DNA of 64,000 bases from an uncultured Bacilli bacterium (GCA_944369075.1 CALVXK010000007.1:4362-68361); one strand, 5' to 3'. Shown: positions 29,915 through 61,092, numbered from the stretch's first letter. Numbers and translations are program-made. The notes: generated by a model not told the origin, from the letters alone.

Positions 29915-31849
29915 CTAATCACTCCCTTTCAATGATGGATTAAATGCATCACGTAGTCCATTACCAAAAAGGTTGAAACTAATCATCATCAACGCAACAA
30001 TAACTGAAGGCCAAATAATTAAATAAGGATAAGAGTTAATAAATTGTTGATTTTCAGATAAGGTAACACCTAATGAAGGTAGACCTTGTAATCCTAAATT
30101 TAAATAGGAAATAGTAGCTTCATTAAAGATAACACTTGGAATAATTAATACGCAACTTGTAACTAATGTACCAATAGAATTAGGTAAAATATGTTTAAAA
30201 ATTAACCTAAAATCTGATGCACCTAGGGTTCTTGCAGCTAAGACGTATTCCCTACCTTTGAATCTATAGAATTGTGATCTTGTTAATGAAGAAACGCCAA
30301 TCCAGCCAGTAAGACACAAAGCAAGAATGAATGTACCAAAGTTATTACCTAAATGCAAAATACATAAAGTCATTATAACAATCCATGGGATTCCGGATAG
30401 AATATCTGTGAATCTTTCCATAACAATATCAATATTTCCACCAAAATATCCAGAAATTGAACCCCAGATGATACCAAAAGTAATACATACAGCAGCTGTA
30501 CCAAAGCCAAGGAGTAATGATGTTCTAAGACCAGCGAAGATAGAATGAAGCAAATCTTTACCATATTTATCGGTTCCAAGTAGATAAATTGGCATTTCAT
30601 CATAACCAAGGTAACGATATTTTAAAACTTCGCAATTTAAAGAAACTGTGCCAAGTCTAGAATCATATGTTTGAGAGTAGACTTTAGTAATTGGACATTT
30701 GTTCTCATCTAAAATCTTAAACGATTCAACACCAACGTTTACATCATAACTCATCCAACCATTTTGGATATAGTTATTTAAAGTATTTTGCGAAATTATT
30801 TGGTTAACGTGACCAAATTTAGCAACATAAGTATCGTAAACGAAATTACATCTCACTAAAGTTGATTTGTAAACGCCTTTATTTCCTGTAGAAGTCCAAT
30901 AACCAATGTTATCAACGCCATTAGTACTTCTAGCTGTTCTAACCATTTTATTAGCATCATCAAAGAATACTTCATCTAAAGTTGCTTGTTCTTCTGAATT
31001 TGATGACTCAACGGTGCATTCTTTAACCAAAAGTTGAGAAACTATACCGCTTTCATAATCAAGATTAAAAGATACTGAGCAATTGGAATATGCTTTTTCT
31101 TCTAATCCAGCAGCGATAGCTAAATCAGTTAAATTTACATCAAGATCAGAATAATCGTTAGAAAAATCTCTAATTAAAAAATCTTTTTGTTCTTCACCAT
31201 CTAAATACGAGAATGTTACCGAGTAACCCCCTAACATTGTAGTTGTTGAAGTAGGCTCTTTGCCAAATTCAACATGTAACGAATAATCATTTTCAAAATT
31301 AAACTCGATAGGGTAAGATTTCATGCTTGTAGTTGATGTAGTTGAAACTGAATTATAAAAATTGACATATCCGCCATAAGCATAGTCATTTACAGTGTTA
31401 ATTTCAGTTTCCATCAATTCAAGAGTATCATCCAATACAGCTTCTTTTGAGAATCCACCAGGAGTTTCATTTACTGTATCATAAGCAATTTTAAAATCAG
31501 TATATTTCTTTGTCCCATCCCGAAAGCCAGTTCCAGAAGGAAAAAGTTTAGGCTCCAAAAATTGCTCATCTAAGTGTGGTGAATCAATATCGCTAGGTAA
31601 AGCAACAGGCAAAATAATTGCACCTAATAACAAAATACCGAGGATAATACCACCAGCAACAGAAGACTTATTTTTTCTAAATCTTCTAAAAGCATCTTTT
31701 AAAAATGTAGTAGGCTTACTTTTAAATTTTACATCGTGAATTCTTGCGCCTTTATTTACAATTTCAAAATCTTCTTTCGAAATTTCAATTTGTTGATCAT
31801 TGTTATTTGAATCGACATATTCAAATAATTCTTTTTTATTATCACTCAT
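29915..31849 (-). CDS. oppC: Oligopeptide ABC permease OppC with large extracellular insertion
   Basis: 'DAFRRFRKNK', 'LGTDKYGKD', 'EYVLAARTLGA', 'GNGLRDAFNP'; start moved to MSDNK. Confidence 0.88.
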   Translation of the reverse strand: MSDNKKELFEYVDSNNNDQQIEISKEDFEIVNKGARIHDVKFKSKPTTFLKDAFRRFRKNKSSVAGGIILGILLLGAIILPVALPSDIDSPHLDEQFLEPKLFPSGTGFRDGTKKYTDFKIAYDTVNETPGGFSKEAVLDDTLELMETEINTVNDYAYGGYVNFYNSVSTTSTTSMKSYPIEFNFENDYSLHVEFGKEPTSTTTMLGGYSVTFSYLDGEEQKDFLIRDFSNDYSDLDVNLTDLAIAAGLEEKAYSNCSVSFNLDYESGIVSQLLVKECTVESSNSEEQATLDEVFFDDANKMVRTARSTNGVDNIGYWTSTGNKGVYKSTLVRCNFVYDTYVAKFGHVNQIISQNTLNNYIQNGWMSYDVNVGVESFKILDENKCPITKVYSQTYDSRLGTVSLNCEVLKYRYLGYDEMPIYLLGTDKYGKDLLHSIFAGLRTSLLLGFGTAAVCITFGIIWGSISGYFGGNIDIVMERFTDILSGIPWIVIMTLCILHLGNNFGTFILALCLTGWIGVSSLTRSQFYRFKGREYVLAARTLGASDFRLIFKHILPNSIGTLVTSCVLIIPSVIFNEATISYLNLGLQGLPSLGVTLSENQQFINSYPYLIIWPSVIVALMMISFNLFGNGLRDAFNPSLKGSD

Positions 31850-31850
31850 A

Positions 31851-32888
31851 TTATTTCTTAGCCCCCATTCTAATACGTGGGTCGACAATTCCATAACTTA
31901 AATCAACTAATAAGTTAGCTGCTAAGCCAATAAGGGTGAAAATTGCCATATCGACCATTAAAACATTATAATCTTTAGCGGTAAGAGCATCAGTAAACAA
32001 TCTACCGATACCAGGGATACCGTAAAGATTTTCTAGAATCATTGAACCAGATAAAATACCAATAAATTGTCCAATAATCATAGGAACAATAGGCACCATA
32101 CTATTTCTTAAAGCATGTCTAATAACACATTGTGTCCTTGTTAAGCCTTTTGTTCTAGCTAAAAGTAAGAAGTCGCTTGACATGATTTCGCATAATTCAG
32201 CTCTAGTATAACGAGTAAAACTTGCGATTGTTCCAAATGACAAGGCACAGACTGGAATAATAAATGCTTTGGCAATTTCACCTGAAGTTGCAGTACTAGA
32301 TGGCCGTTGAGATGGAAGCCAACCGGTACTATAAGCAAAAATTAAAAGTAAAAATGTTATAACAATGAAACTAGGAATAGAAATCATAATCATAACTAAA
32401 GTTGATATCACGTGATCTGTAAGTTTATTTTTCTTTAAAGCAGCTATGATACCAAATAAAAATCCAAGTGGAACAGCAATTACAATACTTATAACATTAA
32501 GTTCCATTGTAACTGGCAATCTCTCCCCAATAATTGCAATTGCACTTGAATTTACACTAATGGAAGTTGAAGTACCCCAGTCCCATCTAGTTAAGACATT
32601 TACAAGAAAATTCCAATATTGTTGCATGATAGGAACTTTATAAAAATAATGGACTACATTTAATGCATCGGTATAAGAATAAAGGTAGTCACCTAAATCT
32701 GGCCTCAATGAGGTCATATCATATACATATCCTAAACTAACTTGATCAAAATAATAAGCTTGAACTTGTGCTGGGAATCCTGCAGGCGGAGTATCAGGAA
32801 GCATTTTCATTAAAATGAATGTTAAACTTAAAATGATGAAGGCTGTAAAGAATATCAAAACTACTCTTTTAAGAAAATAGCTCTTCAT
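31851..32888 (-). CDS. oppB: Oligopeptide ABC permease OppB
   Basis: 'DWGTS', 'RYTRAEL', 'ARTKGL', 'HALRNS', 'DLSYGIVDPRIR'. Confidence 0.92.
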   Translation of the reverse strand: MKSYFLKRVVLIFFTAFIILSLTFILMKMLPDTPPAGFPAQVQAYYFDQVSLGYVYDMTSLRPDLGDYLYSYTDALNVVHYFYKVPIMQQYWNFLVNVLTRWDWGTSTSISVNSSAIAIIGERLPVTMELNVISIVIAVPLGFLFGIIAALKKNKLTDHVISTLVMIMISIPSFIVITFLLLIFAYSTGWLPSQRPSSTATSGEIAKAFIIPVCALSFGTIASFTRYTRAELCEIMSSDFLLLARTKGLTRTQCVIRHALRNSMVPIVPMIIGQFIGILSGSMILENLYGIPGIGRLFTDALTAKDYNVLMVDMAIFTLIGLAANLLVDLSYGIVDPRIRMGAKK

Positions 32889-32923
32889 TATATTTTATCC
32901 TCCTTTTCAATTTATTATAGACA

Positions 32924-32955
32924 TAAAGAAAGTGCCATTGCTAGCACTTTCTTTA
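32924..32955 (-). terminator. Hairpin between oppA and oppB (partial terminator or mRNA stabiliser)
   Basis: TAAAGAAAGTGC / GCACTTTCTTTA. Confidence 0.7.
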
Positions 32956-32975
32956 ATCAAATCATAAATATAAAT

Positions 32976-35717
32976 CTATTCTGTTGCTGCGTATGTTGGA
33001 ACAACGAATTGATAGGATTGTGCAGAAAGAGTTCCATCTGCTGTAACAACATCGTATTCTAAGTAAATTCCAACAGTTCCACTTTGGCCATCATCATATG
33101 TTGGTAAAATTTCAGCTGTAAATACTAAATCAAGTGGATTATCACCAGCAGGAAGACCTGTTTCTGATTCAGGATCATATTGATCAGCATAATCAGCATA
33201 TGTTAAAGCGTTGAAAATTTCAATACGTCTTAATTTAAGAGATTCGATTCCAGCGCCTTCTGTAGCTGTAATGTGGAATGTATATGTAACTCCAGCATCG
33301 CTCTTAACATAATCATAAGTTAATGCTGAAGGAGCAACTTCTTGACCGGAAGCAACTAAGGAACCTTGATAGCAAGCTGAATAGAATGCATCAAATGAGT
33401 AATATTCTCCATTCCATTCAATTTCATCTGTTACTTTTGATGTATCAGGGCCCCAGTTAAGAGTGAATCCACTTCTACCATCTGAACACCAAATTTGAGT
33501 TAAGCCAAGAGGATCGAGTTGGTAACCAGTAATTGCACCAAAGCCTAAATCGAATTGACCGGCTTTTAAATCGTCATATGTATCAGTATAAGATGTACCA
33601 GGAACAATGTTCTTAATTGAAAGAGTATATCCGTATTCTTTCCAAGCCTCATTAGCAAGAGCTGTCATTGAGGCTGCAGCTGGTTCACCGAATTCATCAA
33701 TATTTGTTTCTGATTGCCAAATACAAACTAGTTCAATATTTGTTGGTTTGTTGACATCACCTTGTTTATATGTTCCTTTAGCAAATTCTTCTTGCATCGC
33801 TCTCTTATAATAAGTAATTGCAGCATCTTCGTTGTAACCACTAGTTTCTGGATACATATCAGCAATGTTAGCTTGATGTTCTGGTGTATCATTCCAGTTA
33901 ACTAAAGTACCGTCACTATTCTTTGTATAGGCTTTATAAGCAGATGAGAAGTAGTTTAATGTAGGTGTCATACCTGAAGCAGCGCCAATTGCTGTTCTAT
34001 CCATTGAGAAGAATAAACCATTAAGGAAGTTCTTGTTGGACATAATAGGTTTGACATCCCAATATTGAGATTTTGGAGTTTGTACAACACTACCATTTTC
34101 ACCGAATAATTCTTCCCAAAGTTCAGGTGTAGTAGCATTTACGTTAAGTTTCCATGTACCTGTATCTGGAATAACTTTAGTTCTTGGATCTGATTTATAT
34201 TGATCAAGTTGTGTAACAGGAATTGTACATGAATCTAACTTGCCAGCTAAGAATTCTTTGAATAATAATTCAGTATCAGTCTTAGCACCAACATAGACAG
34301 CATAGAAGATACCATCTAATTTATACATATCTTGTTCATCTTCTGTCTTAACGTAATTTTCATTCTTTTTGAAGGCAATTCCTTTATCAGTTTCCCAGTG
34401 TGATAAAGTCCATGGTCCAACAGAAATAGTATTATCAACAGGGGAATATGCTCTATCAGTACTCCATTTACCATAAGTTTCAACTCCAATTTGCATTACT
34501 GCATCCATTGGAAGTGGTGAATAATAAGGTAAACCTTGGAATGCATCTCTAAATCCTTCTGCATCAAATTTATTTGCAGTTGTGAAAACAATTGAACTTG
34601 TTGCTTCATCAGCTTTAATTCCAACTTGTTGGAATAATTCGTCATTATAGTCTTGGTTAGCTGTTGCATTGAAATATTGTTGAGCACCTTTTAATAATTG
34701 AGTGTAGCCATCTCCAGCCATCTCAGCGCCTCTATAAAAGCCATAGCTTTGTGTTAAGCCTAATTTAATATTAGTTAAGTAGTCTTCGAGTTGGACTTCT
34801 CTTCCGTTCCAGTCTACTCCACTTCTACTTCCAGCATAAGAATATTTAAGACCATCTTTACCAGTTTTTACTCTAACTCTAAATTGTGTGCCTTGTCCAT
34901 TTTCATCAGCATCAAGAACTTCTGGTAAATCATCTTGTGCTGTTACAGGATAAAGTTCGCCACCATTTTTAACATCATTAAATTTATAATTCCAAAGTGG
35001 TAAAACTGTCAAACCAGCTAACTCATCAATAAGAGTTCCGTTTCCATCCATTGCATAAATTTCAGCTGGATCTTCACTCATACCACTATGCCAATATGAA
35101 CCGTATTCATAATCATCAGAATAGCCTGATAATTTTCCATCGACTGAATAATAAGCAGTTCCACCAAATCCCATTAAGTCTTGATATGTTTCAACAGGTA
35201 ATACAGAACGTTCAGAGTACATATTATAAGCTGTATCAGCAACCATTGGGATACCGGTTAAGAATTCATTATAAGCATATTTTTCTTGAATACCTAATAA
35301 TTGGTTTTTAACTTCTGGTGTTGAAATAGTTAAATTTCTTAAACCAGATGCAGCTTTTGATAAATCGACAACATTTTTAACTTCAAGATAAGCTGAAGCG
35401 CTAACACCTGTTGCACTAGTTGCTGTAACAACAACAGTACCATCACTAACAGCAGTTACTGTACCATTTGTATCAACAGTTGCAACCATAGGATCGCTAG
35501 TTGTCCATGTCCATGTTGTTTCACTACCATCTGATAAAGCAGCAGTGAAAGTTGTTGTAGTACCTTCATCAAGTTCAGAAGCACCGCCCGATAAGGAAGC
35601 AGTAACATTTGGTTCTACTTGTTCTTCTGGTCCACAACTTGTAAGACTATAAATCCCTAACCCGCCAAATGCTACGAGGCAAGATAAAGCTAATACATGT
35701 AGTCTTCTTTTTTTCAT
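32976..35717 (-). CDS. oppA: OppA-like substrate-binding lipoprotein with N-terminal Ig-like (Big_2) domain
   Basis: AAGGAGG RBS; 'SLTSC' lipobox; 'TWTTSDPMVATVDTNGTVTAVSDG' Ig-like motif; 'SVGPWTL..W......FKKNENY' SBP motif; first gene of the opp operon. Confidence 0.8.
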   Translation of the reverse strand: MKKRRLHVLALSCLVAFGGLGIYSLTSCGPEEQVEPNVTASLSGGASELDEGTTTTFTAALSDGSETTWTWTTSDPMVATVDTNGTVTAVSDGTVVVTATSATGVSASAYLEVKNVVDLSKAASGLRNLTISTPEVKNQLLGIQEKYAYNEFLTGIPMVADTAYNMYSERSVLPVETYQDLMGFGGTAYYSVDGKLSGYSDDYEYGSYWHSGMSEDPAEIYAMDGNGTLIDELAGLTVLPLWNYKFNDVKNGGELYPVTAQDDLPEVLDADENGQGTQFRVRVKTGKDGLKYSYAGSRSGVDWNGREVQLEDYLTNIKLGLTQSYGFYRGAEMAGDGYTQLLKGAQQYFNATANQDYNDELFQQVGIKADEATSSIVFTTANKFDAEGFRDAFQGLPYYSPLPMDAVMQIGVETYGKWSTDRAYSPVDNTISVGPWTLSHWETDKGIAFKKNENYVKTEDEQDMYKLDGIFYAVYVGAKTDTELLFKEFLAGKLDSCTIPVTQLDQYKSDPRTKVIPDTGTWKLNVNATTPELWEELFGENGSVVQTPKSQYWDVKPIMSNKNFLNGLFFSMDRTAIGAASGMTPTLNYFSSAYKAYTKNSDGTLVNWNDTPEHQANIADMYPETSGYNEDAAITYYKRAMQEEFAKGTYKQGDVNKPTNIELVCIWQSETNIDEFGEPAAASMTALANEAWKEYGYTLSIKNIVPGTSYTDTYDDLKAGQFDLGFGAITGYQLDPLGLTQIWCSDGRSGFTLNWGPDTSKVTDEIEWNGEYYSFDAFYSACYQGSLVASGQEVAPSALTYDYVKSDAGVTYTFHITATEGAGIESLKLRRIEIFNALTYADYADQYDPESETGLPAGDNPLDLVFTAEILPTYDDGQSGTVGIYLEYDVVTADGTLSAQSYQFVVPTYAATE

Positions 35718-35864
35718 AAATTTCCTCCTTAAGAAATAGTTTTCAAAGGAATTATTAAGATAATAACTAATTCCTTGCTTCAATATGTTTAAAATTCTAC
35801 ATTTGAGAAGTAAAAATTATACAAAAAATTTTTATTCTTAATATTATATTAATGTTTTAAATGA

Positions 35865-36290
35865 CTAATTTGTTAATAATAAAAAAGTTACTATTGCACC
35901 AATAAGATATATAATTCCATAGAAAAAATAGAATACAAAATTCCGTCTATTTCTAATTCTTTTTTCCTCTTTTAAATTTTTATATGAAATAACATCTTCG
36001 TATTTTTTATCTCCGCCTTTTTTATAAGAATATAATAAATTTGCAAAAGAATAAGACATTAAATCAAATGTTCCTTGATTTCCTACAATTTGAAGAACGC
36101 CAACACCTATAAAAATGGCTCCAGTGATGAAAAAAGAATCACAAGCAACTTTTAAAGTTAGGTCAAAGAAGCATAAAAAACAAAGACCAAAAATTACAAT
36201 CGATATGGCAAATAGAATAAGTATATAAGATATATGCGAAGTAATTAAATTCTTAAAATTTAAGAAAAATATATATAGTTTGTTTTTCAT
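35865..36290 (-). CDS. Small membrane protein (DUF3899-like)
   Basis: 3 TM; 'DSFFITG', 'QGTFDLMSYSF'; family recalled as often opp-adjacent. Confidence 0.6.
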   Translation of the reverse strand: MKNKLYIFFLNFKNLITSHISYILILFAISIVIFGLCFLCFFDLTLKVACDSFFITGAIFIGVGVLQIVGNQGTFDLMSYSFANLLYSYKKGGDKKYEDVISYKNLKEEKRIRNRRNFVFYFFYGIIYLIGAIVTFLLLTN

Positions 36291-36346
36291 AAAGTAGATT
36301 TTAGCAAAAATAGAGTGATTAAAAAACAAAAATAATTGAGTTTTAG

Positions 36347-39300
36347 TTAATCATTATTGTTTTTTTTATCTTTCATTACTACTATGAAAGTAACAATTAA
36401 ACCAATTACTATTAATCCACCAACAACCGATAATCCAATAACAAGAGGTAAATTAATATCAGATTTAATATCGCCACTAAATGTAACTAAAAAATCATAT
36501 GAATTAGCTGAATTAATATTTTTTGAATTATCAAAAGTAAAGGTTAAAGATGTGCCATTTTTATTAGATGAAAGTGAAGTAAGATTAGAACTACTACCAT
36601 TTTCATCACTTAAAGAATAAACCGTGCTATCAGCATTAATATATGTATCTTCTAATGATAAAACAACAGTGTAAGGTGATTCTTTATCGAGTTTTTGATA
36701 CATTCCAACTGGATTAGTAATTGATAAAGAATAACCGAAAGTATTTTTATTACCATTATATAATCCATAATTTATGCTATCTAAATAAACGACATCTGTT
36801 TCATTGATATTCTTATTAAAAACTAAAGCATTTAAATTAGATACGCTTCTTCCATAAAGTACTCCATAGTTTTTCCCAATAACTTCAATAAATAAGTCAT
36901 TATAAGAATTAAATAAATCATTAAAACCAGGCAATACAATTTCATTAAGATTTAAAGTAAATGAGAAAGATCCATTATCTAATTTAGTTTTAGTTAATAC
37001 CTCACCGTTTACTCTAACTTGAGCAATATCGTCTTTAGAAGAAACAATAGTTAAAGTTTTAGTATCATAATAAATCTCTTCAAGTTCAACATCATTAACT
37101 TCAGAATCTATCTCTAAAATATATTCTTTAGTATATGTATAATCATCAAATAAAGTATAAGTAAATTTTAAAGAGTATGTTCCATCTTCAAAATAATTTC
37201 CGCTTTCTTTATCTTTTAACGGAATAATTGTATAAGCAAAATCTGCAAAAATACCATTATTTACTAAATTAACACTAGCTTTAGATTTAACTAAAGAATA
37301 ATCGTCTTCTTCACTAACCATTGTATCAAACATATGGTCAGTTAAAACAACCTTATTTGTATCTAAAGAAGTTAAAGTAATTTCATTTGTCTTAACACTT
37401 CTATTAACAAAGTTTTGGATATATAAAGTATCAGCGCTACCTATATTACCAGCATAAAGAATAAATTTATCTTCATTTTCATCATAAGAATAATTAATAG
37501 GAATAAATAAATCATCAATACTTTTTTCGTTTAAAATAACGCTTTCCATATCAAGTTGATCTAAACCTAAATTAGTTACACCCATAAACGAACCAAAATT
37601 CATTGCTTTAAATCCAAGTGTTTCGCCAAAATTATTTAACATATCTGAAGAATAAACTTTATTATCACCATAATATTCTTTTTCAAAATTATATGGTTCA
37701 ATTACATCTTCTTTATGGTAATCACCTAAGAATCCAAGTACAGGAATAGATAAATCAACTAAATTAGCATTATTAGTATCATTATTTAATGTTACATAAC
37801 CTTCTAAATATGTTCCATTAGGGAAATCTTTTAAGATTGAATCTAAAGTTGATTTATCTAATTGATAATCAATACAAATAGTTTGATTTTCGTTTCCATC
37901 TAAATTCACTTCGAAAGAATCACTAATTACTTCTTTAGTGTAGAAGCTATCTTGAACTTTTTCACCTTTTAAAAATCCATTAGAATTTTCGCTATCAACA
38001 TAAGTAATAGTTGGTGTTCCTAAAGATAAATTTAAAGTATATTTACCAGTTAAATTCTCTTTATTAACAACATTAATATCAAACTTAACATGTCCTTCAC
38101 TTATTTCAGGATTATTTTTTAATTCAATCGCTGATTCATGAGTTAATGGATCTTCTAAATAGATTTTAGTTTTAATTGCATCACTTACATCAACTTCTCC
38201 TGCTCCGACTTTTCTAACACTTACATAAGATTCATTAGCTTGTTTAATAGGATTGGCTGTTGACATAATTCTATTTAATAAAGTATCTTTAAATTCTTTT
38301 TCTTCATTTTCATCTTTAAAATCTTGACTTGATAAGATTAAAGCTTCAGCCCCACTAAAATTAGGTGTAGCCATCGATGTTCCTGAAAGATAACGATATT
38401 CGTTATTTGTTGTAACACCATTATTAGAAGCTGAAATACCAGCAATATTTTGTCCTGGTGCACTAATTTGTGGATTAATATCGAGTAACTGTGAACTTCC
38501 TTCACTAGAAAAATCTGAAGCTAAACTTTTAGTGATATAAATAGCTTTTTCTTCTTGATTAAGTAATGTTTGATAGCTTTCATAAGAAATTGAATAAGTA
38601 GGAATTAAATCATCACTTTTATTTCCTTGTAAGTCATAATTTATTAAACTTCCTAAACCTTCTTGATTAGCGATAATAATTCCAATTGCTCCATGGCTTT
38701 TAGCATTTTTAATTTTACTTACTAAATCAATATCGCCTCTTTTAACTAAAGCAATTTTACCAGTTACATCAACATCATTGTAATCGCTATTATCACCAAC
38801 TCCTGGAACAATTACATATTCATACTTTCCAACAGTTTCGTCATTATCGAGTAATGACCACATCATTTTTGGTTCAGAATTATAATTTAATAATGAGCTA
38901 GTAATTTCATCATAGCCATAAATCTTAATTCCAGAAACTGTTGAGATATCGGAAGTTACAGAATTATCACTAGTTAAATTAGTTGAAGCAACTGAAGTTA
39001 CTCCATCTAAAACGTTATAACCACCTAAACTACCATTTTCAACATTGTTAACATTATCATTGCGGTAAGATTCAAAAGTATTGAAGTTTCCTTTACCATT
39101 ATTGCCACTAGCAAAATTAACTTCGGTACCATTTTCTTTGAGTCTAGAAATTAATATTTGAGCATTTTCATCTTCTGTTAAAGAAGATTCGTCTAAATCA
39201 GTACCAAAAGAACAAGAAACAATATCTGCGCCTAAGTAATATGCATCATTTAGCGCTTTAAAAATTGCATCATCACTTAAAATATTATCTCCGCTTAATC

Positions 39301-40144
39301 CAGGAACTTCTCCACCTACTTTCATTAAAGCAAGTTGCGCATTTGGAGCAACCCCTTTAAAAGTACCATTAGCCCCTAAAATAGAAGCAACGTGAGATCC
39401 ATGAACCCCGCTAGAATACATTAAATCATCATCTTCTTTAATAGGTTCATATGTAGTTTTATTTAGTGTTCCACCATAATCATGGTAATAAGGTATTTTT
39501 CTATTTAAATAATAATTTAAATTAGTTAAATCAGCCTCAAAATCACTTGATTTAACAATTGAATCAACATTACTTTTAGATACTTTAACATTAATCGAAG
39601 AATCTAAATCTTTAAAAGCTTCATGATGAATATTAAAAGAATCATCAAGTATCGCCACAAGTACTCCTTCTCCATCATTTGTAATACTTGAAGAAGGAAC
39701 GTTCATATCTTTAATTGAATCATTCTCTAAAGGAGTCTTATATATTTCTTCAACATTATTTTCAACATCAAAAGAATTACTACTTATAGTGTAATAATTA
39801 TTCTCATCTACACTTAAAACAGAACTTAAACTTTTTAACTTACTAGTATTGTTAGAATTAATATTTAATCTAACCCCATGAATAATACCTTCATAAGATT
39901 CAATAAAATCATAACTAATATTATTATCGTTTAATTCTTTAAATAAATCTTCTTTGCTATAAGATTGATTTAATAAAACAATTGTATCTTGGTCTTTAAT
40001 TAATTTTCTTCCTAATGAATTATAGTAAGAACTAGATTCATTTGTATTTGATGAATTAAATGATAGTGATATTGATGTAAGAATGGAACTTGTACCAATA
40101 AGTAATGCTGTTGGAAGTAATATATGTTTAAAAATATTTTTCAT
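36347..40144 (-). CDS. Cell-surface S8 subtilisin-like serine protease (PA domain; lactocepin/C5a-peptidase-like), C-terminally membrane anchored
   Basis: Triad 'VAILDD', 'HGSHVA', 'GTSMATP'; PA 'GKIALVKRG'; signal peptide; C-terminal TM plus basic tail. Confidence 0.9.
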   Translation of the reverse strand: MKNIFKHILLPTALLIGTSSILTSISLSFNSSNTNESSSYYNSLGRKLIKDQDTIVLLNQSYSKEDLFKELNDNNISYDFIESYEGIIHGVRLNINSNNTSKLKSLSSVLSVDENNYYTISSNSFDVENNVEEIYKTPLENDSIKDMNVPSSSITNDGEGVLVAILDDSFNIHHEAFKDLDSSINVKVSKSNVDSIVKSSDFEADLTNLNYYLNRKIPYYHDYGGTLNKTTYEPIKEDDDLMYSSGVHGSHVASILGANGTFKGVAPNAQLALMKVGGEVPGLSGDNILSDDAIFKALNDAYYLGADIVSCSFGTDLDESSLTEDENAQILISRLKENGTEVNFASGNNGKGNFNTFESYRNDNVNNVENGSLGGYNVLDGVTSVASTNLTSDNSVTSDISTVSGIKIYGYDEITSSLLNYNSEPKMMWSLLDNDETVGKYEYVIVPGVGDNSDYNDVDVTGKIALVKRGDIDLVSKIKNAKSHGAIGIIIANQEGLGSLINYDLQGNKSDDLIPTYSISYESYQTLLNQEEKAIYITKSLASDFSSEGSSQLLDINPQISAPGQNIAGISASNNGVTTNNEYRYLSGTSMATPNFSGAEALILSSQDFKDENEEKEFKDTLLNRIMSTANPIKQANESYVSVRKVGAGEVDVSDAIKTKIYLEDPLTHESAIELKNNPEISEGHVKFDINVVNKENLTGKYTLNLSLGTPTITYVDSENSNGFLKGEKVQDSFYTKEVISDSFEVNLDGNENQTICIDYQLDKSTLDSILKDFPNGTYLEGYVTLNNDTNNANLVDLSIPVLGFLGDYHKEDVIEPYNFEKEYYGDNKVYSSDMLNNFGETLGFKAMNFGSFMGVTNLGLDQLDMESVILNEKSIDDLFIPINYSYDENEDKFILYAGNIGSADTLYIQNFVNRSVKTNEITLTSLDTNKVVLTDHMFDTMVSEEDDYSLVKSKASVNLVNNGIFADFAYTIIPLKDKESGNYFEDGTYSLKFTYTLFDDYTYTKEYILEIDSEVNDVELEEIYYDTKTLTIVSSKDDIAQVRVNGEVLTKTKLDNGSFSFTLNLNEIVLPGFNDLFNSYNDLFIEVIGKNYGVLYGRSVSNLNALVFNKNINETDVVYLDSINYGLYNGNKNTFGYSLSITNPVGMYQKLDKESPYTVVLSLEDTYINADSTVYSLSDENGSSSNLTSLSSNKNGTSLTFTFDNSKNINSANSYDFLVTFSGDIKSDINLPLVIGLSVVGGLIVIGLIVTFIVVMKDKKNNND

Positions 40145-40284
40145 AACTAAAATCTCCTTAAAGACAGTCAATATATTTATTATTCTATGATTTTAATTTT
40201 TGTAAATATAAATATCTATTAAAGAGATATTTTAGGTTGCAAGTAGTAATATAGTATATATTTAGTATATATTTGTTAAATAAA

Positions 40285-40316
40285 AACTCTATAACTTGTT
40301 GCTAAGCTATAGAGTT
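40285..40316 (-). terminator. Intrinsic terminator after prs
   Basis: AACTCTATAACTT / AAGCTATAGAGTT hairpin. Confidence 0.65.
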
Positions 40317-40340
40317 AATGTTTAATTAAAATAATTAATA

Positions 40341-41315
40341 TTATCTAAATTTAGCGTATTCGATTCTGATATCCTCATGTGATTCATGAGATTTAATGAT
40401 ATCAGCAATCATCTTAGCAATTGAAATTACTTTAATTTTATTAGAACCTTCAAATTCTTCGTGTTCAATAGTATCAGTTACAATACATTCTGTAACATAA
40501 TCTGCAGCTTCCATTCTAGCTTTTGCTTCGCCATTAAATAAAGCATGTGATACGCAAAGGAATACTTCTCTTGCTCCTTTATCTTTTAATGCTTTAGCAC
40601 CAGCTAAAATAGTTCCACCTGTATCAATAATATCATCAACCATTACACAGACTTTACCATTAATATCGCCAACAACATTTAAAATTTCAGCAACATTTGG
40701 TTTTGGTCTTCTTTTATCTATAACAACAATGTTGGTATTAGGAATAAATGAAGCTAAGTCTCTAGCTCTATGCATTGCACCATGATCAGGAGCAACAATA
40801 GCTACATTTTTACCAGTAAAATTTGGATCATCTTTTAATCTTTTATTTAAATATTTAGCGAAAAGATATGATGGGGTAGTATTATCTACTGGAATTCCAA
40901 AGAATCCTTGAATTTGAGGGGTATGTAAATCGACAGTAATAACTCTTTTAACGCCAGAATTAGTAAATAAATCGGCAACCATTCTAGCGGTAATTGGTTC
41001 ATTTTTAGAAGCAATTCTATCTTGTCTAGCATAACCATAATAAGGCATTATTAAGGTAATTTCTCTAGCATTTGCTCTTTTAATGGCATCTATGAAAATA
41101 AGTGTTTCCATGATTCTATCGTTAACTGGTTTAGAAGTTGACTGAATAATATAAACTTTTTTACCTCTTACATCACTTTTAGATAATGCGATACATTCTC
41201 CATCAGCAAAATGTTTTACTTCACTTTCTCCCATTTTCATATCTAATTGTTCACATACTTTTTTAGTGAGCGAGATGGATGAAGTAAGTGAGAAGATAAT
41301 AATGTCTTTTAACAT
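40341..41315 (-). CDS. prs: Ribose-phosphate pyrophosphokinase
   Basis: 'FADGE', 'PYYGYARQDR', 'DLHTPQIQGFF', 'VDDIIDTGGT'. Confidence 0.96.
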   Translation of the reverse strand: MLKDIIIFSLTSSISLTKKVCEQLDMKMGESEVKHFADGECIALSKSDVRGKKVYIIQSTSKPVNDRIMETLIFIDAIKRANAREITLIMPYYGYARQDRIASKNEPITARMVADLFTNSGVKRVITVDLHTPQIQGFFGIPVDNTTPSYLFAKYLNKRLKDDPNFTGKNVAIVAPDHGAMHRARDLASFIPNTNIVVIDKRRPKPNVAEILNVVGDINGKVCVMVDDIIDTGGTILAGAKALKDKGAREVFLCVSHALFNGEAKARMEAADYVTECIVTDTIEHEEFEGSNKIKVISIAKMIADIIKSHESHEDIRIEYAKFR

Positions 41316-42230
41316 GGCTTTTCCCCCAAAAATAAGAATAATAATTTTTTAACGCCAAAATATTATATCGATAATTATCTTCCTTTTAAAGTATTATTTA
41401 TAACTATAAAGTCTATATTTATCATTAAAATAGCGTTTAAACATAGTAATGTTGATTCATTTTTTATAAAGTTATTTTAAATTATCTTTTATGCTTATCT
41501 TATTTAGATAATATTATTGAAATAATAATAATTTAAAAAATAACAAGTAAAGTAAAAGTAATTATAGAAGTTTTTATTATAGCAATTTATTTGATTAAAT
41601 AATTTTACTTTTAAATTTTTGCCTTATTTAAATTTAAAAATTTACTCCCCAAAATTTATATTAAGAAGATTCAAACCAAAGGAAGAAACTATTTTAAATC
41701 TTTTGTGTATTACTTGTACTTTTTATCATCTTGTAAAGCGAAAATAGCAAATACATAATAATTGACGAAGAATAAGTCCTAAGACATTAATAGACATAGA
41801 TGATTTATATGGCATTTATAATCATAAAAACAGATACGGAAGAGCAATTGTTATAAATCTAAATAAAGTCTGTAATTTTAGAACTTATGTAAAAGGAAAT
41901 ATTCGAAGAAAAAGTTAATATAGGAGGTTATTTTTAAAATAGAATCTAATATAAAAAACTTACGTGAAACATGTGTTTATTATTTAAAAGAAGCATTATC
42001 TATACTCCAAAAGGGTCTATTCGATTATTTAGAAGATATTTATGAGAAATTCACGAAGCTAACGGTATTTTTCTAGATTAAGGAAATAGTTATCAAGTTT
42101 GTTGCTTCTTCTTTTAAATAATAAATAAATAATCTACTAAATATATTAAAGAAATAATTATTCCTAGTTATTAAATTGTCTTGCATTTCTAATTTAAGAT
42201 AACTATATTTTTCTAGGAGTTTTTATTTGT

Positions 42231-43658
42231 ATGACTTTAAAGCGTGAAATAAATATGACTGAAGGTAATTTTAAAACCTTATGGAAAAAAGTCTTTTTAT
42301 ATTCTTTACCAATTATTTTGGTAGGTGTTCTTGAAATATTATTTAATACTTTTGATTTAATAACAATTGAGGGAAAAGAAGGTGAACTAGCTGCGGCTGC
42401 AGTTGGAGCTAATGCTGGATTTATAGCTTTATTAACTAATGTTTTTATTGGTTTATCTACAGGTGAAAACGTAGTTATGGCCAGACACTATGGAAGAAAC
42501 GATAGTGAAGGTGGAGAAAAATGTGCTTCTACTGGTTTACTAATTGCTTTTATTGCCGGAATTATAATTGCTCTTATTGGTTATTTCATTACCCCTTCCT
42601 TACTTAAAGTCATGCAGGTTGAAGATTCTTATTTTGATTTAGCCGTAACTTATCTTCAACTTTATTTCTTCGCTATGCCTTTTATGGCAATATATAATTT
42701 TGGATCTGCTACTTTTAGAGGTATGGGTGATTCTACTACTCCTTTAATATTCTTAATTATTGCTGGAGTTGTTCATATCGCTTTAGATTATCTTTTTGTT
42801 TATGGATTTAATATGTCAGTTCAAGGTGTAGCTTTATCAAATATTATTTCTTATGCTTTAGCTGCTATATTAGTTTTACTTTTTCTTAGATACAAGAAAA
42901 GTTTTATTAAATTTAGATTTAAAGATATTAGATTTAGAAGAGAAAGTGCTTTAGAAATATTAAAAATTGGTATACCTTCAGCTTTGGAAGGTATGGTATT
43001 TGCAATATCAAATATCTTACTTCAATCAAGCGTTAATACTTGGGGGAGCAAGGTTGTTGAAGCAAATGCTGATTGTGAAAATATAGAAAACTTTGTTTAT
43101 ACAACAACATTTTGCTTAGCTCAAGGTGGTGCAGCATTTGTTTCAGCAAATTATTCTATTGGGAAAAAGAAAAATGTTATTAATTTAGTTAAAATAATTG
43201 AACTTAATGCCTTTATTGTTGGCCTTATACTTGGACTTATCTTCTTAGCTTTAAATAGACCTTTAATTTATGCTTATAGTGGTGGAAAAGCTGATGAAGA
43301 ACTTTATAGTCTTTGTTTTGAAAGACTTGTACTACTTCTTTCAACATATTTTTTATGTGGCATGATGGATGGAATTACTAATTCGCTTAGAGGTATGAAT
43401 AAGCCTTTGGTGCCAATGTTAATTACGATATTTTTCTTATGTATATTTAGAGTATTTCGGAACTTTGTGGTTTATTCTCCAGAAGTTGGTAATCCTAGAC
43501 ATTCAACAATATTACTTTATGTTTGTTATCCAATTTCTTGGATTATGTCGTCATTATTCCAACTTCTTTATCTATATATTAAAAGAAAGAAAATTAGTAA
43601 AGAACTTGAAGAAAATAGAATTATTTATCAAGAAAAAGCTACGAATCCTACTTGCTAG
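42231..43658 (+). CDS. MATE family efflux transporter
   Basis: About 12 TM; 'FRGMGDSTTPL', 'LKIGIPSALE', 'SLRGM', C-terminal 'CIFRVF[CGG]' and 'YPISW'. Confidence 0.92.
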   Translation: MTLKREINMTEGNFKTLWKKVFLYSLPIILVGVLEILFNTFDLITIEGKEGELAAAAVGANAGFIALLTNVFIGLSTGENVVMARHYGRNDSEGGEKCASTGLLIAFIAGIIIALIGYFITPSLLKVMQVEDSYFDLAVTYLQLYFFAMPFMAIYNFGSATFRGMGDSTTPLIFLIIAGVVHIALDYLFVYGFNMSVQGVALSNIISYALAAILVLLFLRYKKSFIKFRFKDIRFRRESALEILKIGIPSALEGMVFAISNILLQSSVNTWGSKVVEANADCENIENFVYTTTFCLAQGGAAFVSANYSIGKKKNVINLVKIIELNAFIVGLILGLIFLALNRPLIYAYSGGKADEELYSLCFERLVLLLSTYFLCGMMDGITNSLRGMNKPLVPMLITIFFLCIFRVFRNFVVYSPEVGNPRHSTILLYVCYPISWIMSSLFQLLYLYIKRKKISKELEENRIIYQEKATNPTC

Positions 43659-43659
43659 T

Positions 43660-44210: not shown

Positions 44211-44220
44211 AATATTCTTA

Positions 44221-45117: not shown

Positions 45118-45187
45118 AAAAATTACCTCTAAACTAATTATTTATATTATATTAGTTAAGTATTTTTATTTTAAGATAAAATAGTGT

Positions 45188-47467
45188 TTATTTTGCTTGT
45201 TTTATTGATAAACCAATTCTTTTTCGATCTAGATCTAAAGAAATAACTTTAACTTTTACAACTTGATTGATAGAAAAAATATCAGAAAGATTTTTAATAT
45301 AAGAATCGCTAGCTTCTGAAATATGAACTAATCCATCTTGATGAACATTAATATCAACAAACATACCAAAATCCATAATGTTTCTTATTGTTCCATTTAA
45401 AATCATTCCAACTTTTAAATCTTTAATATCTTTAACTTTATTATCTAAAGTTACAATTTCCATCTCATCTCTAATATCTCTACCTGGATTTTTAAGTTCA
45501 CTTAAAATATCTTCTAAAGTTTCTAAAATCATATCTTTATGTTCGTTAAGGAACTTTGTTTTATTTAATGAATTAAGTTTAGAAACTCTTTCTTCATATG
45601 AATCATTTTTTAAATCACAATTAACTTCTTTTAAAATGAGTTTTGCATCATTATATCTTTCTGGATGAATCATCGTGTTATCTAATATTTCTTCACTATC
45701 TTCAACTTTTAAGAAACCGGCACATTGAGTAAAAGCTTTTTCGCCCATCATTTTAACTTTCTTTAAATCATTTCTAGATTTAAAGTCACCATTTTCTTTT
45801 CGATATTCATAAATATTTTTAGCTAAAGTTTTCGAAACCCCTGAAACATAATTAAGTAAAGAAATAGAAGCATTATTAACTCTAACTCCAACTTTATTAA
45901 CGCAGTCTTCAACAACATTAGATAAAGCATCATTTAGTTTAGTTTGGTTCATATCGTGTTGATATTGACCAACTCCAATTGCTTTAGGTTCAATTTTTAC
46001 AAGTTCAGCTAAAGGATCAATGATTCTTCTTGCTAAAGATATAGCACTTCTTTTTTCAACGCTAAGTTCAGGAAATTCTTCTTCCCCAAGTTTAGAAGCA
46101 CTATAAACGCTCGTACCACTTTCATTAACAATAAATATCTTTGTAGAATTTAGATTATATTCTTTTAACATTACATTAAGTACTTCTTCACTTTCTCTAG
46201 AAGCAGTACCATTGCCTAAAGCAATATAATCTATATCGTATTTTTTAATTAAAGTTGCAATTTCTTTTTTACCTTTTTCAACTTGTTCTTTACTACTAGA
46301 AGTAATATAAACTGTACCTACTTCATGAGGAATAGAAAGAGTATCAACATAGGCATATTTACATCCTGTTCTAAAACCAGGATCAAAACCTAAAACTTTC
46401 TTATTTTTTAATGGTGGATAAAGTAATAATTCTTTTAAATTCTTCTTAAATACTTCAATTGATCTATCTTCAGCAAAAGTAAATAAATCATTTTCAATTT
46501 CATTAGTTATCGAAGGTAAAATAGATTTATTTAATGAATCTTTAATACATTCACTAATAATATCTTCAAAATAGATATTATTAGTTTTAATGTAATGATA
46601 TGACATATAAGAAATTAATCTATCTTTATCATAACTAAATGAAAAAGAAAGTTCTTTTTCTTTATTTCCTCTAAATATTGCTAAAATTTGATAAGGTTTA
46701 AGTTTATTAATCTTATTTTCAAAATCTTTATATGTATCGTATTTTGATTTAACATTAGTTAATGTATTATCTTTACTTTCTTTTAACTTAACTTTAATTA
46801 AACCATAATTATAAATTGATTCTTTAATGTATTTTCTAAATTTAGGATCATCACTAAATTCTTCTTTAATAATATCTTTTGCTCCTTCTAAAGCTTCTTC
46901 TTTTGATTTAACACCTTTTTCTTCATTTACAAAAGATTCTAAATAAGAATTATAAAAATCATCGACATATCTATTTTTTAAGATAACATCTTTAATAGGT
47001 TCAAGACCTTTTTCAATAGCTTTCTTTGCTTTTGAAACTCTTTTTTCTTTATAAGGACGATATAAATCTTCTAAAGTTGATAAAACAAAGGTTGATTTAA
47101 TCTCGTTTTCTAATTCTTTAGTTAATTTATCTTTAAGATATATTGCATTTAAAATCGTTTCTTTTCTTTCTTCAATATTTCTTAAATACTTTAATCTTTC
47201 TTCAAAATTTCTTAAAGTTACATCATCTGTATTATTTGTTACTTCTTTTCTATATCTAGCAATAAAAGGAACTGTATTTCCTTCATCAAGTAAGTTTATA
47301 ATCTTACTTACAATATCTTCTTTTAAATTAAGTTCATTTGATAAAGTTAAAACAATTCTTTTTAAAGATTCCTCTTTATTAAAATCATACTTTTTAACTT
47401 CATTATCTTCACTATTATTCTCATTAGTATTTAACGAATTTGCTATATCTAAGTTATTTTCTAACAT
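45188..47467 (-). CDS. tex: Tex-like RNA-binding transcriptional accessory protein
   Basis: 'GNTVPFIARYRKE', 'DPGFRTGCK', 'GNGTASRE', 'IGVGQYQHD', C-terminal S1 domain. Confidence 0.95.
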   Translation of the reverse strand: MLENNLDIANSLNTNENNSEDNEVKKYDFNKEESLKRIVLTLSNELNLKEDIVSKIINLLDEGNTVPFIARYRKEVTNNTDDVTLRNFEERLKYLRNIEERKETILNAIYLKDKLTKELENEIKSTFVLSTLEDLYRPYKEKRVSKAKKAIEKGLEPIKDVILKNRYVDDFYNSYLESFVNEEKGVKSKEEALEGAKDIIKEEFSDDPKFRKYIKESIYNYGLIKVKLKESKDNTLTNVKSKYDTYKDFENKINKLKPYQILAIFRGNKEKELSFSFSYDKDRLISYMSYHYIKTNNIYFEDIISECIKDSLNKSILPSITNEIENDLFTFAEDRSIEVFKKNLKELLLYPPLKNKKVLGFDPGFRTGCKYAYVDTLSIPHEVGTVYITSSSKEQVEKGKKEIATLIKKYDIDYIALGNGTASRESEEVLNVMLKEYNLNSTKIFIVNESGTSVYSASKLGEEEFPELSVEKRSAISLARRIIDPLAELVKIEPKAIGVGQYQHDMNQTKLNDALSNVVEDCVNKVGVRVNNASISLLNYVSGVSKTLAKNIYEYRKENGDFKSRNDLKKVKMMGEKAFTQCAGFLKVEDSEEILDNTMIHPERYNDAKLILKEVNCDLKNDSYEERVSKLNSLNKTKFLNEHKDMILETLEDILSELKNPGRDIRDEMEIVTLDNKVKDIKDLKVGMILNGTIRNIMDFGMFVDINVHQDGLVHISEASDSYIKNLSDIFSINQVVKVKVISLDLDRKRIGLSIKQAK

Positions 47468-47497
47468 TATTAATCCTCAAATTTTTATTTATCAATC

Positions 47498-47525
47498 AAA
47501 TTCCTCCCTTTTTGGGGAGGAATTT
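47498..47525 (-). terminator. Intrinsic terminator after lemA
   Basis: AAATTCCTCCC / GGGAGGAATTT. Confidence 0.75.
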
Positions 47526-47552
47526 ATAATTCTAGTAGTTATTTTATAAATA

Positions 47553-48227
47553 TTAATTAAAGAATGTACCTCTAGCTTCTTCTTTAACTTCTTTAGAAAT
47601 TGAAAAAGGAATTCTAGTGGTATATCCTCTTTTAGCAGCAACAATTTGTTTTGTTGGCCATTCAAAAATAGCATTATTCCATCTATTTACTGCATCATTA
47701 TAAAGTTCTCTAGCGGCAGTAATTTCTCTTTGTAAATAAGAGTTTTTTTGTAAAACATCAGCTATTTCTTGATGAGCTTTTAAATCTGGATAGTTTTCAA
47801 AAGCAACATTAATTTTAGCAGCAACATTATCCATTGTTTGAGCAATTTCATTTCTTGCTCTATCTCCTTCTGGAGAATTAACTCCACCTCTATAAGAAGC
47901 GATTTTAGTCATTGTATCTTTATCTAAATCAATTGCTTTATCTAAAAGCTGAGCAGCATTTTTAAGTTCCACAACTCTTTGTTCCATGTAGTTATCAACG
48001 GTTGAAGCAGCTGATTGAATATTTTGTTGAAGTTGAGAAAGATATTTTCCAGCATTAATTTTCATAAATAAGAAAATAATACCAGGAATAATACCAAGTA
48101 CCCATAAAATAACTTCAAATATTGTTGAACCAACTCCTACTTTTACTGGAATTTGTTTTTCTATAACGCTAACGTCTCTACCTTCTTCCTTAATAGGACC
48201 AGTTACTTCATCTAATTCATTTGGCAT
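47553..48227 (-). CDS. lemA: LemA family protein
   Basis: Single TM; 'FENYPDLKA', 'ITAARELYND.V..WN..I..WP'. Confidence 0.88.
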   Translation of the reverse strand: MPNELDEVTGPIKEEGRDVSVIEKQIPVKVGVGSTIFEVILWVLGIIPGIIFLFMKINAGKYLSQLQQNIQSAASTVDNYMEQRVVELKNAAQLLDKAIDLDKDTMTKIASYRGGVNSPEGDRARNEIAQTMDNVAAKINVAFENYPDLKAHQEIADVLQKNSYLQREITAARELYNDAVNRWNNAIFEWPTKQIVAAKRGYTTRIPFSISKEVKEEARGTFFN

Positions 48228-55982: not shown

Positions 55983-56444
55983 CAGCATGTGTTTTACCTT
56001 GTAAGTTCTTACAGTATTGATGATTTGAAATTTGTAGTACGTATAATCAAGATTCAGTCGTTGTTTTGGCTAATTTTTTGACTAAAAGAAAAATTTTTTC
56101 AGAAATTTTGATTTCGCGGGGGCTAGATCAATATGACAAATCCTCTTCCTTTTATATACATATTTATCATTTGCGAAAATTTGAACTCGAAGTGCTATCG
56201 CCGTGTGCGTATTGCTGGGGTTTGAACTTTTTGAGGTATTTTTTTCTATTTTCGATGGTCATGATGGGACTCCAAAATTCTAGGATACGACATAATGAGC
56301 ACGAATCGGTAATTTTTGGTAAAAAAAATGACCTGTAAAGACTAGACATTATAGGCCTTTTTCAAAGATGCCTACATACTACGCTTTGGATACATTACAC
56401 ACCCTTACAACGGCAACTTTTAGGTTAAACTATTAATCAATATT

Positions 56445-58330: not shown

Positions 58331-58611
58331 TATAAATTAAAAAAAGTAAAAAACATTTCTAGGTATAAAAAGACCACTTAGCTCAATAAGAACCAGATGG
58401 TCAATCAATATTATTAATAAAGATAGGGTGTGCAATTGCCGTTGTTAGTGGTGTGTACGGGTGTACAAAAAAGGGTCGCCGTGTAATAGTGCACACCTGC
58501 CGTTTCAAAGTGAGCCCTAAAAATGACGGTTTTTTGATGAATTTTAAAGATTTCGGCTTCAACTATCGCAAAGGCGTAAATTTAAAAAGTGGCCATTTAG
58601 CCTAAAATCAA

Positions 58612-58750: not shown

Positions 58751-58779
58751 ATTAAAAGCCTCAATCTGAGGCTTTTAAT
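58751..58779 (-). terminator. Intrinsic terminator after galE
   Basis: ATTAAAAGCCTCA / TGAGGCTTTTAAT. Confidence 0.75.
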
Positions 58780-58785
58780 TAATAA

Positions 58786-59805: not shown

Positions 59806-59874
59806 TTTATATATTTCCTCCAAAACTAGTAATATTATAGCTTCTTTAATTTTAAGATTAAACTTGGAATATAA

Positions 59875-61092
59875 CTATTTTAATGAAAAAGTAAATACAC
59901 TTTCTGGATTATCAAACTCTTCATTTGATACCCGAGTAACACTTAAATTATCTAAATCATATAAAGAAGACCAAACAGTAATTGAGTTAGAATCACTTAA
60001 ACCATGTTCTTTATCCCAACTTCTTCTTCCTAATGTTTTAAGTAAGTTTAAAGCTTCTTCTTTAGAATATTTACCTTCACTATTATTTCCATCAGGATTG
60101 ATAGATTCTTTAATGAAGTTATATCTATCTAAACCTTTTTTATCACTATCATTTTCATAGTAATTTGGAGTAACAATAAAGTTTGTAATATATTGGAAAT
60201 TATCTCTTCCTTCATCTTCTCCTACGACTGAATCATCATCATTATAATAAACTTTAAGTTCTCTAGTAGTTCCATCAATATCAGTAGAATCTGTTTTATC
60301 AACCCATTCTAAAATAGCACTTTTACCACTTTTATCAGCAATCATATAATGGAATGATGTATTAGCACTATCATGGAAATCATATTGTTTGACAAGTTCA
60401 ACTGCTTCATCAACACTATCAGCATAATCTAAAATCATTCTTAACATTGTAGTTGATGTTAAATCTGGTTTATCACTATTTTGATTAGTTGAAGTTACAT
60501 TATCTTCAGGTCCTTGATAAGACATATAAATTCCACAAGCAACTCCAGCATCATTCATCCCATCAAGTGGAGCATAAGCAGCAGCTAAAGCAGTTGCTTT
60601 TTGAATTAAAGAAGTCATTTCACCATTAATTCCTAAAAATTGTAAATCAACACTAGAAATGGAAGCATGTCTTCCATTGCCTGGATTAGTATGTAAAATC
60701 ATTGAAGTTGTAGTAGAAAAATCATAATTTCTTCCAAATAAGTTATTATTATTTTCATCAACTACTGTAAAAGATGAACAACCGATTTCAGGAGCATTCA
60801 TTTTAATTGGAATAACTCCTTTAGTAATATTTTTAATAATAAAATCAATTAATTCTTGGTCTGAACTAGCTCCGCCTTCCGCTAAGAAATCATCAAAATA
60901 ATAATCTCCCTTAACACTCATTTCATAAACTGGTCCAGCTTTATTTTCATTATGAGCAGGAATAACTTCTTTTATTGAAGCAATTGAATTTATTTCATTA
61001 AACCAAACTCCATAAATTGTTCCTACTCCAATTGCAGCTAAACCAACAATACCTGCACATATTCCAATAGCAATTTTTGCTCCTAATTTCAT
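59875..61092 (-). CDS. Membrane-anchored linear amide C-N hydrolase (Ntn; choloylglycine hydrolase/C45-like)
   Basis: N-terminal TM, 'GCSSF' nucleophile, 'GRNYDF', 'DGMNDAG', 'HYMIADKSG', 'TNF'. Confidence 0.8.
   Translation of the reverse strand: MKLGAKIAIGICAGIVGLAAIGVGTIYGVWFNEINSIASIKEVIPAHNENKAGPVYEMSVKGDYYFDDFLAEGGASSDQELIDFIIKNITKGVIPIKMNAPEIGCSSFTVVDENNNNLFGRNYDFSTTTSMILHTNPGNGRHASISSVDLQFLGINGEMTSLIQKATALAAAYAPLDGMNDAGVACGIYMSYQGPEDNVTSTNQNSDKPDLTSTTMLRMILDYADSVDEAVELVKQYDFHDSANTSFHYMIADKSGKSAILEWVDKTDSTDIDGTTRELKVYYNDDDSVVGEDEGRDNFQYITNFIVTPNYYENDSDKKGLDRYNFIKESINPDGNNSEGKYSKEEALNLLKTLGRRSWDKEHGLSDSNSITVWSSLYDLDNLSVTRVSNEEFDNPESVFTFSLK

Follow-up and report, generated by a model that had tools for sequence, protein, structure and literature searches.

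CGG codons in the genome of an uncultured Bacilli bacterium are very probably read as tryptophan, as in Candidatus Onthovivens

The stretch of DNA analyzed here, hereafter the window, is a segment of 64,000 nucleotides (G000:C7:4362-68361) from the genome of an uncultured Bacilli bacterium (GCA_944369075.1), whose assembly comprises 1.25 Mb in 35 contigs and is about 94% complete. The subject of this work is the meaning of the codon CGG in this organism, for which a first-pass annotation of the window had proposed tryptophan instead of arginine. Genes were represented by the longest open reading frames (ORFs) of at least 100 amino acids, and no gene caller was used. The 43 ORFs of this kind found in the window (55,506 bp) contained only five in-frame CGG codons in total, against 26 CGG triplets in frame 2 and 58 in frame 3 of the same ORFs, indicating that CGG is strongly avoided in frame. 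These were the five codons that had been listed previously, with exact coordinates and peptide contexts, and the gene names given to the encoding proteins were confirmed by Pfam. The five sites are as follows:

31520-31522, minus strand: CGG at codon 125 of OppC (ORF 29915-31894; Pfam OppC_N and BPD_transp_1), context SGTGF[CGG]DGT
32304-32306, minus strand: CGG at codon 195 of OppB (ORF 31851-32888; Pfam BPD_transp_1), context WLPSQ[CGG]PS
35943-35945, minus strand: CGG at codon 129 of a DUF3899 membrane protein (ORF 35865-36329; Pfam DUF3899), context NR[CGG]NFV
43458-43460, plus strand: CGG at codon 410 of a MATE efflux protein (ORF 42231-43658; Pfam MatE), context CIFRVF[CGG]NFVV
59932-59934, minus strand: CGG at codon 387 of a linear-amide C-N hydrolase (ORF 59875-61092; Pfam CBAH/AAT), context SVT[CGG]VSNE

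When the homologues were tallied, as the first-pass annotation had suggested, tryptophan predominated at the OppB, OppC, MATE, and C-N hydrolase sites, and the DUF3899 position was mostly occupied by phenylalanine. In OppB, TGG was found in 79 of the 80 aligned homologues, which came from diverse uncultured Bacilli, and TTC in the other one. For OppC, 79 homologues could be aligned, and 69 of them had TGG at the site, which is placed directly after the first transmembrane segment, in a conserved G(F/W)WDGT motif; the first-pass annotation had given GFWDG for related OppC proteins. This OppC (29915-31894, minus strand) is 659 residues long, about twice the usual length, with some 350 residues between the OppC_N segment (62-111) and the permease domain (473-655). 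Tryptophan had also been expected at the MATE site, and TGG was present there in all 12 tblastn rows of at least 36% identity, with phenylalanine, leucine, or tyrosine in remoter rows. Over all 25 rows, the counts at this position were TGG 13, phenylalanine 4, leucine 3, tyrosine 1, valine 1, gap 2, and AGA 1, the single AGA being in a gapped row of 24% identity. For the C-N hydrolase, the sister species has TGG, and the five homologues showed TGG in three cases, CGG in one from the same genus, and TTT in one. The weakest of the five is the DUF3899 site, where the seven homologues carried TTT (five), TGG (one), and TTA (one), and none had an arginine codon; this is a hydrophobic or aromatic position, which fits tryptophan and is not decisive when taken alone.

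At the genome level, 98 CGG codons were present in the ORF set, and 13 of them were on contigs C31 (2,556 bp, 55% GC), C32 (2,873 bp, 50% GC), and C33 (6,251 bp, 48% GC). These three contigs, with about twice the GC content of the rest of the genome and with their 13 CGG codons in arginine-looking contexts, resemble foreign DNA or contamination of the bin, and were excluded from the genome-wide tally. The GC content was 25-29% across the 30 main contigs, and about 27% for the genome. The remaining 85 CGG codons, compared with 1,827 TGG codons in a total of 365,558, corresponded to a frequency of 2.3 per 10,000 codons and made up 4.4% of the presumed tryptophan codons. A low GC content together with fewer than 6 CGG per 10,000 codons is the pattern of the Onthovivens/RFN20 code discussed below. 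TGA is kept as a stop codon, with 88.8% of the genome lying in ORFs of at least 100 amino acids.

The exchange of codons between closely related species was analyzed with G006, another species of the same genus, with a median protein identity of 91% and 1.07 Mb compared. Alignments of at least 60% identity provided 284,502 aligned codons. The 41 aligned CGG codons of the studied genome were paired in G006 with TGG in 29 cases, CGG in seven, GAA in two, and TGT, TAT, and CTT in one each, and none was paired with AGA, AGG, CGT, CGC, or CGA. In the opposite direction, G006 had 60 aligned CGG codons, which corresponded to TGG (53) or CGG (7) in the studied genome. As a control, 256 of 283 CGA codons paired with arginine codons, and CGT, CGC, AGG, and AGA behaved likewise, in agreement with the earlier assignment of AGA, CGT, CGA, and AGG to arginine positions. 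These pairings indicate that CGG is synonymous with TGG, and not with the arginine codons. Moreover, at the 1,351 sites pairing only TGG and CGG, there were 82 swaps between both codons, counting the two directions, versus seven positions with CGG in both species. Because the exchange is free and goes both ways, CGG seems to be in active use as a tryptophan synonym, rather than being a relic. This two-way swapping between sister species is a small addition of the present analysis.

A similar picture was obtained with G022, a standard-code outgroup from another family of the same order, for which 996 kb of about 1.3 Mb were compared by pairwise tblastn. This genome has a tRNA-Arg(UCG), and no CCG tRNA was found in the 996 kb. 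The CGG codons of the studied genome were aligned with tryptophan in 13 of 24 cases and with arginine in one; the other 10 were methionine (two), isoleucine, threonine, glutamine, histidine, aspartate, phenylalanine, and serine (one each), and a gap (one). For comparison, TGG was aligned with tryptophan at 353 of 706 positions, AGA with arginine at 2387 of 4375, and CGA with arginine at 55 of 141, the latter also with lysine at 27 of 141 and with tryptophan outside its seven commonest partners. AGG behaved as an arginine codon against both G006 and G022. When the CGG columns were evaluated with empirical substitution profiles for each amino acid, the log10 likelihood was -21.0 for tryptophan, -40.6 for tyrosine, the next best, and -55.7 for arginine. 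The nine aligned CGG codons of G022 itself were paired with AGA (three), AGG (one), AAA (two), AAC (two), and GAA (one), as expected for arginine. The studied genome thus places CGG on conserved tryptophan columns, as described for Onthovivens/RFN20 with Codetta. The first-pass annotation had seen no conserved arginine site among the five of the window, and across the genome CGG behaves as TGG and unlike the arginine codons.

Three of the CGG codons are in two genes of the translation apparatus, both outside the window:

G000:C3:110987-112324, minus strand: CysRS gene, with two CGG codons
G000:C6:12013-12465, minus strand: TadA gene, with one CGG codon

Both CysRS positions are tryptophan in the solved structures 8qhp and 3tqo, and the TadA codon falls in a W/Y-R-L motif, whose first residue is tryptophan in 7cph and 2b3j, and tyrosine in 3ocq. 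All three are at conserved aromatic positions, and these translation genes would themselves depend on CGG being read as tryptophan.

ARAGORN detected 39 tRNAs in the assembly, and the only one found to read CGG is encoded outside the window:

G000:C10:1657-1730, minus strand: tRNA(CCG)

This molecule has 74 nt, the pair A1:U72, G73, and the D-loop AAUGGUA with U20, and its anticodon stem of 5 bp is closed by U31-G39. The length and D-loop are identical to those of the tRNA-Trp(CCA) of this genome, whereas the three arginine tRNAs (ACG, UCU, and CCU) have 77 nt and A20. G73, A1:U72, and the short AAUGGUA D-loop are features recognized by bacterial tryptophanyl-tRNA synthetase (TrpRS), and A20 is the main determinant for arginyl-tRNA synthetase (ArgRS). 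A tRNA with the CCG anticodon, G73, and no A20 is what had been proposed for searching, and this one has, in addition, A1:U72. In PMC8629427, G73 and the absence of A20 are taken as the marks of a tryptophan acceptor, with A/G1:U72 as support, and tRNA(CCG) shows all of them. In a tree of 49 tRNAs built with 74 columns, a branch with support of 92/93 split the CCG and Trp(CCA) tRNAs from those for arginine. No tRNA-UCG was detected among the 39 tRNAs of this assembly or in the 1.07 Mb of G006. The genome contains one TrpRS (G000:C3:112387-113361), one ArgRS (G000:C5:60916-62535), and TadA; a second, dedicated TrpRS was not found, as there was a single trpS match in the genome.

Collectively, the exchange with G006, the columns against G022, the individual sites, and the features of tRNA(CCG) support the original proposal, whose predictions agreed with all of the suggested checks that were run. 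The code of this organism is very probably a variant of code 11 where CGG stands for tryptophan, as judged from comparative sequence data. Charging of tRNA(CCG) would fall to the only TrpRS encoded in the genome, and TadA would convert A34 of tRNA-Arg(ACG) to inosine, which would read CGU, CGC, and CGA as arginine. Given that inosine does not pair with G and that tRNA-UCG was not found, CGG would be read by tRNA(CCG) alone. The low GC content, 27%, may have made CGG very rare and its reassignment cheap, and the codon would drift in and out of tryptophan positions as a synonym of TGG.

Several observations weigh against this conclusion. The ORF set is crude; of its 98 CGG codons, 57 lacked a counterpart in G006 aligned at 60% identity or more. 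Five of the 41 that were aligned (12%) paired with neither TGG nor CGG, compared with about 1% for TGG codons, and 10 of the 24 sites aligned with the outgroup have neither tryptophan nor a gap. The tRNA(CCG) is only 65% identical to the tRNA-Trp(CCA) of the same genome, and the assembly is without some expected tRNAs, so tRNA-UCG should be regarded as not found rather than proven absent. C35 and G36 are anticodon determinants for ArgRS, and since tRNA(CCG) keeps both, some charging with arginine is possible. This last feature, along with the 12% of discordant pairings and the fact that CGG is still rare among the presumed tryptophan codons, would also suit an unfinished reassignment, in which CGG is ambiguous, mostly tryptophan with an appreciable share of arginine, or is poorly read and tolerated by its rarity; PMC8629427 itself allows for ambiguity. 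We consider this quite unlikely, because CGG is found at invariant tryptophan positions of essential enzymes, twice in CysRS and once in TadA, none of the 101 aligned CGG codons was exchanged with an arginine codon in the comparison with G006, and A20 is absent from tRNA(CCG).

The standard code, with CGG as arginine and the five sites of the window due to chance or to lineage-specific tryptophan-to-arginine substitutions, could draw on the single arginine among the 24 positions aligned with G022 and on the AGA found in one weak MATE homologue. It is scarcely tenable in view of the lack of arginine exchanges in the 41 and 60 CGG alignments with G006, as opposed to 256 of 283 for CGA, of a likelihood 35 log10 units lower for arginine than for tryptophan, and of the failure to find an arginine-type tRNA reading CGG among the 39 tRNAs. 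Editing of the mRNA from C to U, which would turn CGG into UGG and let the ordinary tRNA-Trp(CCA) insert tryptophan, would leave the same pattern at the DNA level, and nothing positive speaks for it. We know of no site-specific mRNA C-to-U editing system in Bacillota, and editing leaves unexplained why 28 or more genomes in the genus carry a dedicated, conserved tRNA(CCG) with tryptophan features, making it extremely improbable. CGG has been reported to be unassigned in Mycoplasma capricolum, and the codon could likewise be unassigned here, read by no tRNA, with the in-frame cases being errors or pseudogenes. Some members of the genus may be at that stage, as no CCG tRNA was found in four of five further high-quality genomes. 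For the studied genome, which has an intact tRNA(CCG) and 85 in-frame CGG codons in intact, conserved genes, some of which stay CGG in relatives, we regard this possibility as negligible. The reading of CGG as tryptophan is, therefore, the one considered in what follows.

The change from CGG to tryptophan has been published for Anaerococcus, for an uncultivated Bacilli clade of the order RFN20, and for Absconditabacteria (Shulgina & Eddy 2021, PMC8629427), and the first-pass annotation had correctly named Anaerococcus, an uncultured Bacilli clade, and the authors of the survey. A Bacilli lineage with this reassignment is named Onthovivens in PMC13092985 and in bioRxiv 10.64898/2026.05.03.722492, and from the matching lineage lists across these papers, we infer that the RFN20 clade of PMC8629427 is Onthovivens. 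Contig C36 of G041, which shares its genus with the studied genome, matches with 100% identity over 3,068 bp a record titled Candidatus Onthovivens sp., one of the 24 Bacilli-/Mollicutes-type MAG records described below, and because of this shared genus and match, the studied genome is placed within the published recoded genus. The annotation had left the choice between a known recoded clade and an independent event; the former stood, in the shape of the published Bacilli lineage Onthovivens, and the latter did not. Onthovivens/RFN20, as described in these sources, shares with the studied genome the codon, its new meaning, the low GC content, the very rare use of CGG, the tryptophan-type tRNA(CCG), the lack of a detected tRNA-UCG, and the reading of CGA, CGU, and CGC as arginine, with the inosine step being presumed, and no difference of substance emerged from the published descriptions.

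The other known systems are further away. Anaerococcus (Peptoniphilaceae) shares the codon change, according to PMC8629427, and, in the scan described below, the type of tRNA, with 74 nt, the AAUGGUA D-loop, and G73; however, it belongs to another class (Clostridia/Tissierellia), the acceptor stems of its CCG tRNAs differ from the Onthovivens type, and no flanking genes are shared. In Absconditabacteria (SR1), CGG is tryptophan too and the CCG tRNAs have a similar D-loop, but the published account has CGA reassigned as well and UGA coding for glycine, whereas in the studied genome CGA is read as arginine and TGA as stop. Peptacetobacter, with CGG as glutamine, and Enterosoma, also from RFN20, with AGG as methionine, are reported as low-GC Bacillota that have likewise reassigned rare arginine codons. 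Their new meanings are different: for CGG in the studied genome, glutamine is outside the six best likelihoods and was seen at 1 of 24 columns, and AGG is arginine.

Within the genus, a tryptophan-type tRNA was detected by BLAST in 25 of 60 genomes, in all 25 with the anticodon CCG and G73, and a pattern search added three genomes with a tryptophan-type tRNA(CCG), for a total of at least 28. With a general pattern from the anticodon to the T-loop, no CCG tRNA was found in G003, G017, G033, and G071, all from the same genus and 94-96% complete, and one was found in G009, also from this genus. A decoder for CGG may be missing from some species of the genus, the codon being unassigned in them; alternatively, the gene could be unassembled or atypical. 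The CCG tRNA is very variable within the genus (55-99% identity), an observation that is another small addition of this analysis. When the pattern search was extended to the order, 41 of 301 genomes matched; 16 inspected matches among the 276 genomes from outside the genus contained no CCG tRNA and were attributed to chance, with similar counts in the control, and six more matches from outside the genus lay beyond these 16 loci.

A scan of one genome per prokaryote species gave 94 matching stretches and 80 loci, 73 of these loci with a CCG tRNA. These were distributed in Anaerococcus (8), a Helcococcus metagenome-assembled genome (MAG; 1), a Tissierellia MAG (1), Bacilli-/Mollicutes-type MAG records (24), and an Absconditabacterales/SR1-type group (39), the last two groups being defined from features of the sequences rather than from taxonomy; they correspond to the three lineages with a published CGG-to-tryptophan change. 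The Tissierellia MAG (L248) and the Helcococcus MAG (L255) are outside Anaerococcus, and their tryptophan-type tRNA(CCG) has 74 nt, G73, and the AAUGGUA D-loop. Finegoldia is also reported to have a tryptophan-type tRNA(CCG) (PMC8629427). In addition, close OppB homologues or Onthovivens-type CCG tRNAs were observed in records titled Phocaeicola dorei, Slackia, Bacteroides uniformis, Gemmiger, Bacteroidaceae, and Lachnospiraceae (L091, L096, L097, L110, L216, L221, L231, and L239), whose organism names are probably wrong.

The spread of this tRNA raises the possibility that the tRNA(CCG) of Onthovivens and that of Peptoniphilaceae (Anaerococcus and the Helcococcus and Tissierellia MAGs) are a single, horizontally moved gene, which we consider unlikely. 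If this were true, the "convergent" CGG-to-tryptophan reassignments of Bacillota would not be independent; the lineages are host-associated. A hint of common origin is that in both lineages the CCG tRNA is only 55-65% identical to the tRNA-Trp(CCA) of the same genome. For the tRNA(CCG) studied here, the identity with the tRNA-Trp(CCA) of its genome, about 65%, is not higher than with several others. As a further hint, the CCG tRNAs of Anaerococcus and of the Onthovivens type are 54-81% identical, and a core of 56 nt is 94.6% identical between L186 and L238, from Anaerococcus, and L254, from a Bacilli MAG. In approximately unbiased (AU) tests, lineage-specific origins tended to be disfavored (p = 0.026 for each lineage), and the significance was lost upon removal of the columns fixed by the search pattern (p = 0.086 and 0.067); the groups were chosen after the tree had been seen, and the alignment had 53-74 columns. 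The flanks of the tRNA(CCG) in L186 and L238 showed no homology with those of L254. When ordinary tRNAs sharing an anticodon are compared across the two lineages, their identity is 59-92%, so the CCG tRNAs of Anaerococcus and the Onthovivens type are as alike as the vertically inherited tRNAs of both. With an unresolved tree, borderline AU tests, and unrelated flanks, a single origin or horizontal transfer was rejected as a finding. The history of the tRNA is left open for Anaerococcus and Finegoldia in the main text of PMC8629427, where the word "horizontal" does not appear.

Within the window, in-frame CGG codons were also present in two short intergenic ORFs:

56066-56338, plus strand: short intergenic ORF of 90 amino acids with an in-frame CGG
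58401-58562, minus strand: short intergenic ORF of 53 amino acids with an in-frame CGG

A tblastn search of both against two relatives gave no match, and they are probably non-genes, left out of the gene count. The public runs containing the region 29900-36400 of the window are labelled as chicken gut, bird, or gut metagenomes, which fits a bird-gut habitat. Contigs from four runs, three of RNA or possibly RNA and one of DNA, were compared with the region 29900-48100; among them, a metatranscriptome contig of 6.4 kb spans the opp genes and differs at 150 of 5,871 nt, pointing to a related strain.

The reading of CGG as tryptophan thus appears real in this organism on the strength of its sequence, and it is already known for the genus Candidatus Onthovivens (PMC8629427 and PMC13092985). 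Sense-codon reassignments are few in free-living bacteria, and the studied genome is a clean example of one; as the case has been described for the genus, it changes no open question. In practical terms, translation with table 11 would misplace arginine for tryptophan at about 85 codons, including those in CysRS, TadA, and the five proteins of the window, so the warning in the first-pass annotation that the supplied translations are wrong at CGG was justified under the supported reading, where tryptophan belongs at these positions. Arginine-for-tryptophan errors of this kind are probably also present in public database entries for the gene products of this genus.

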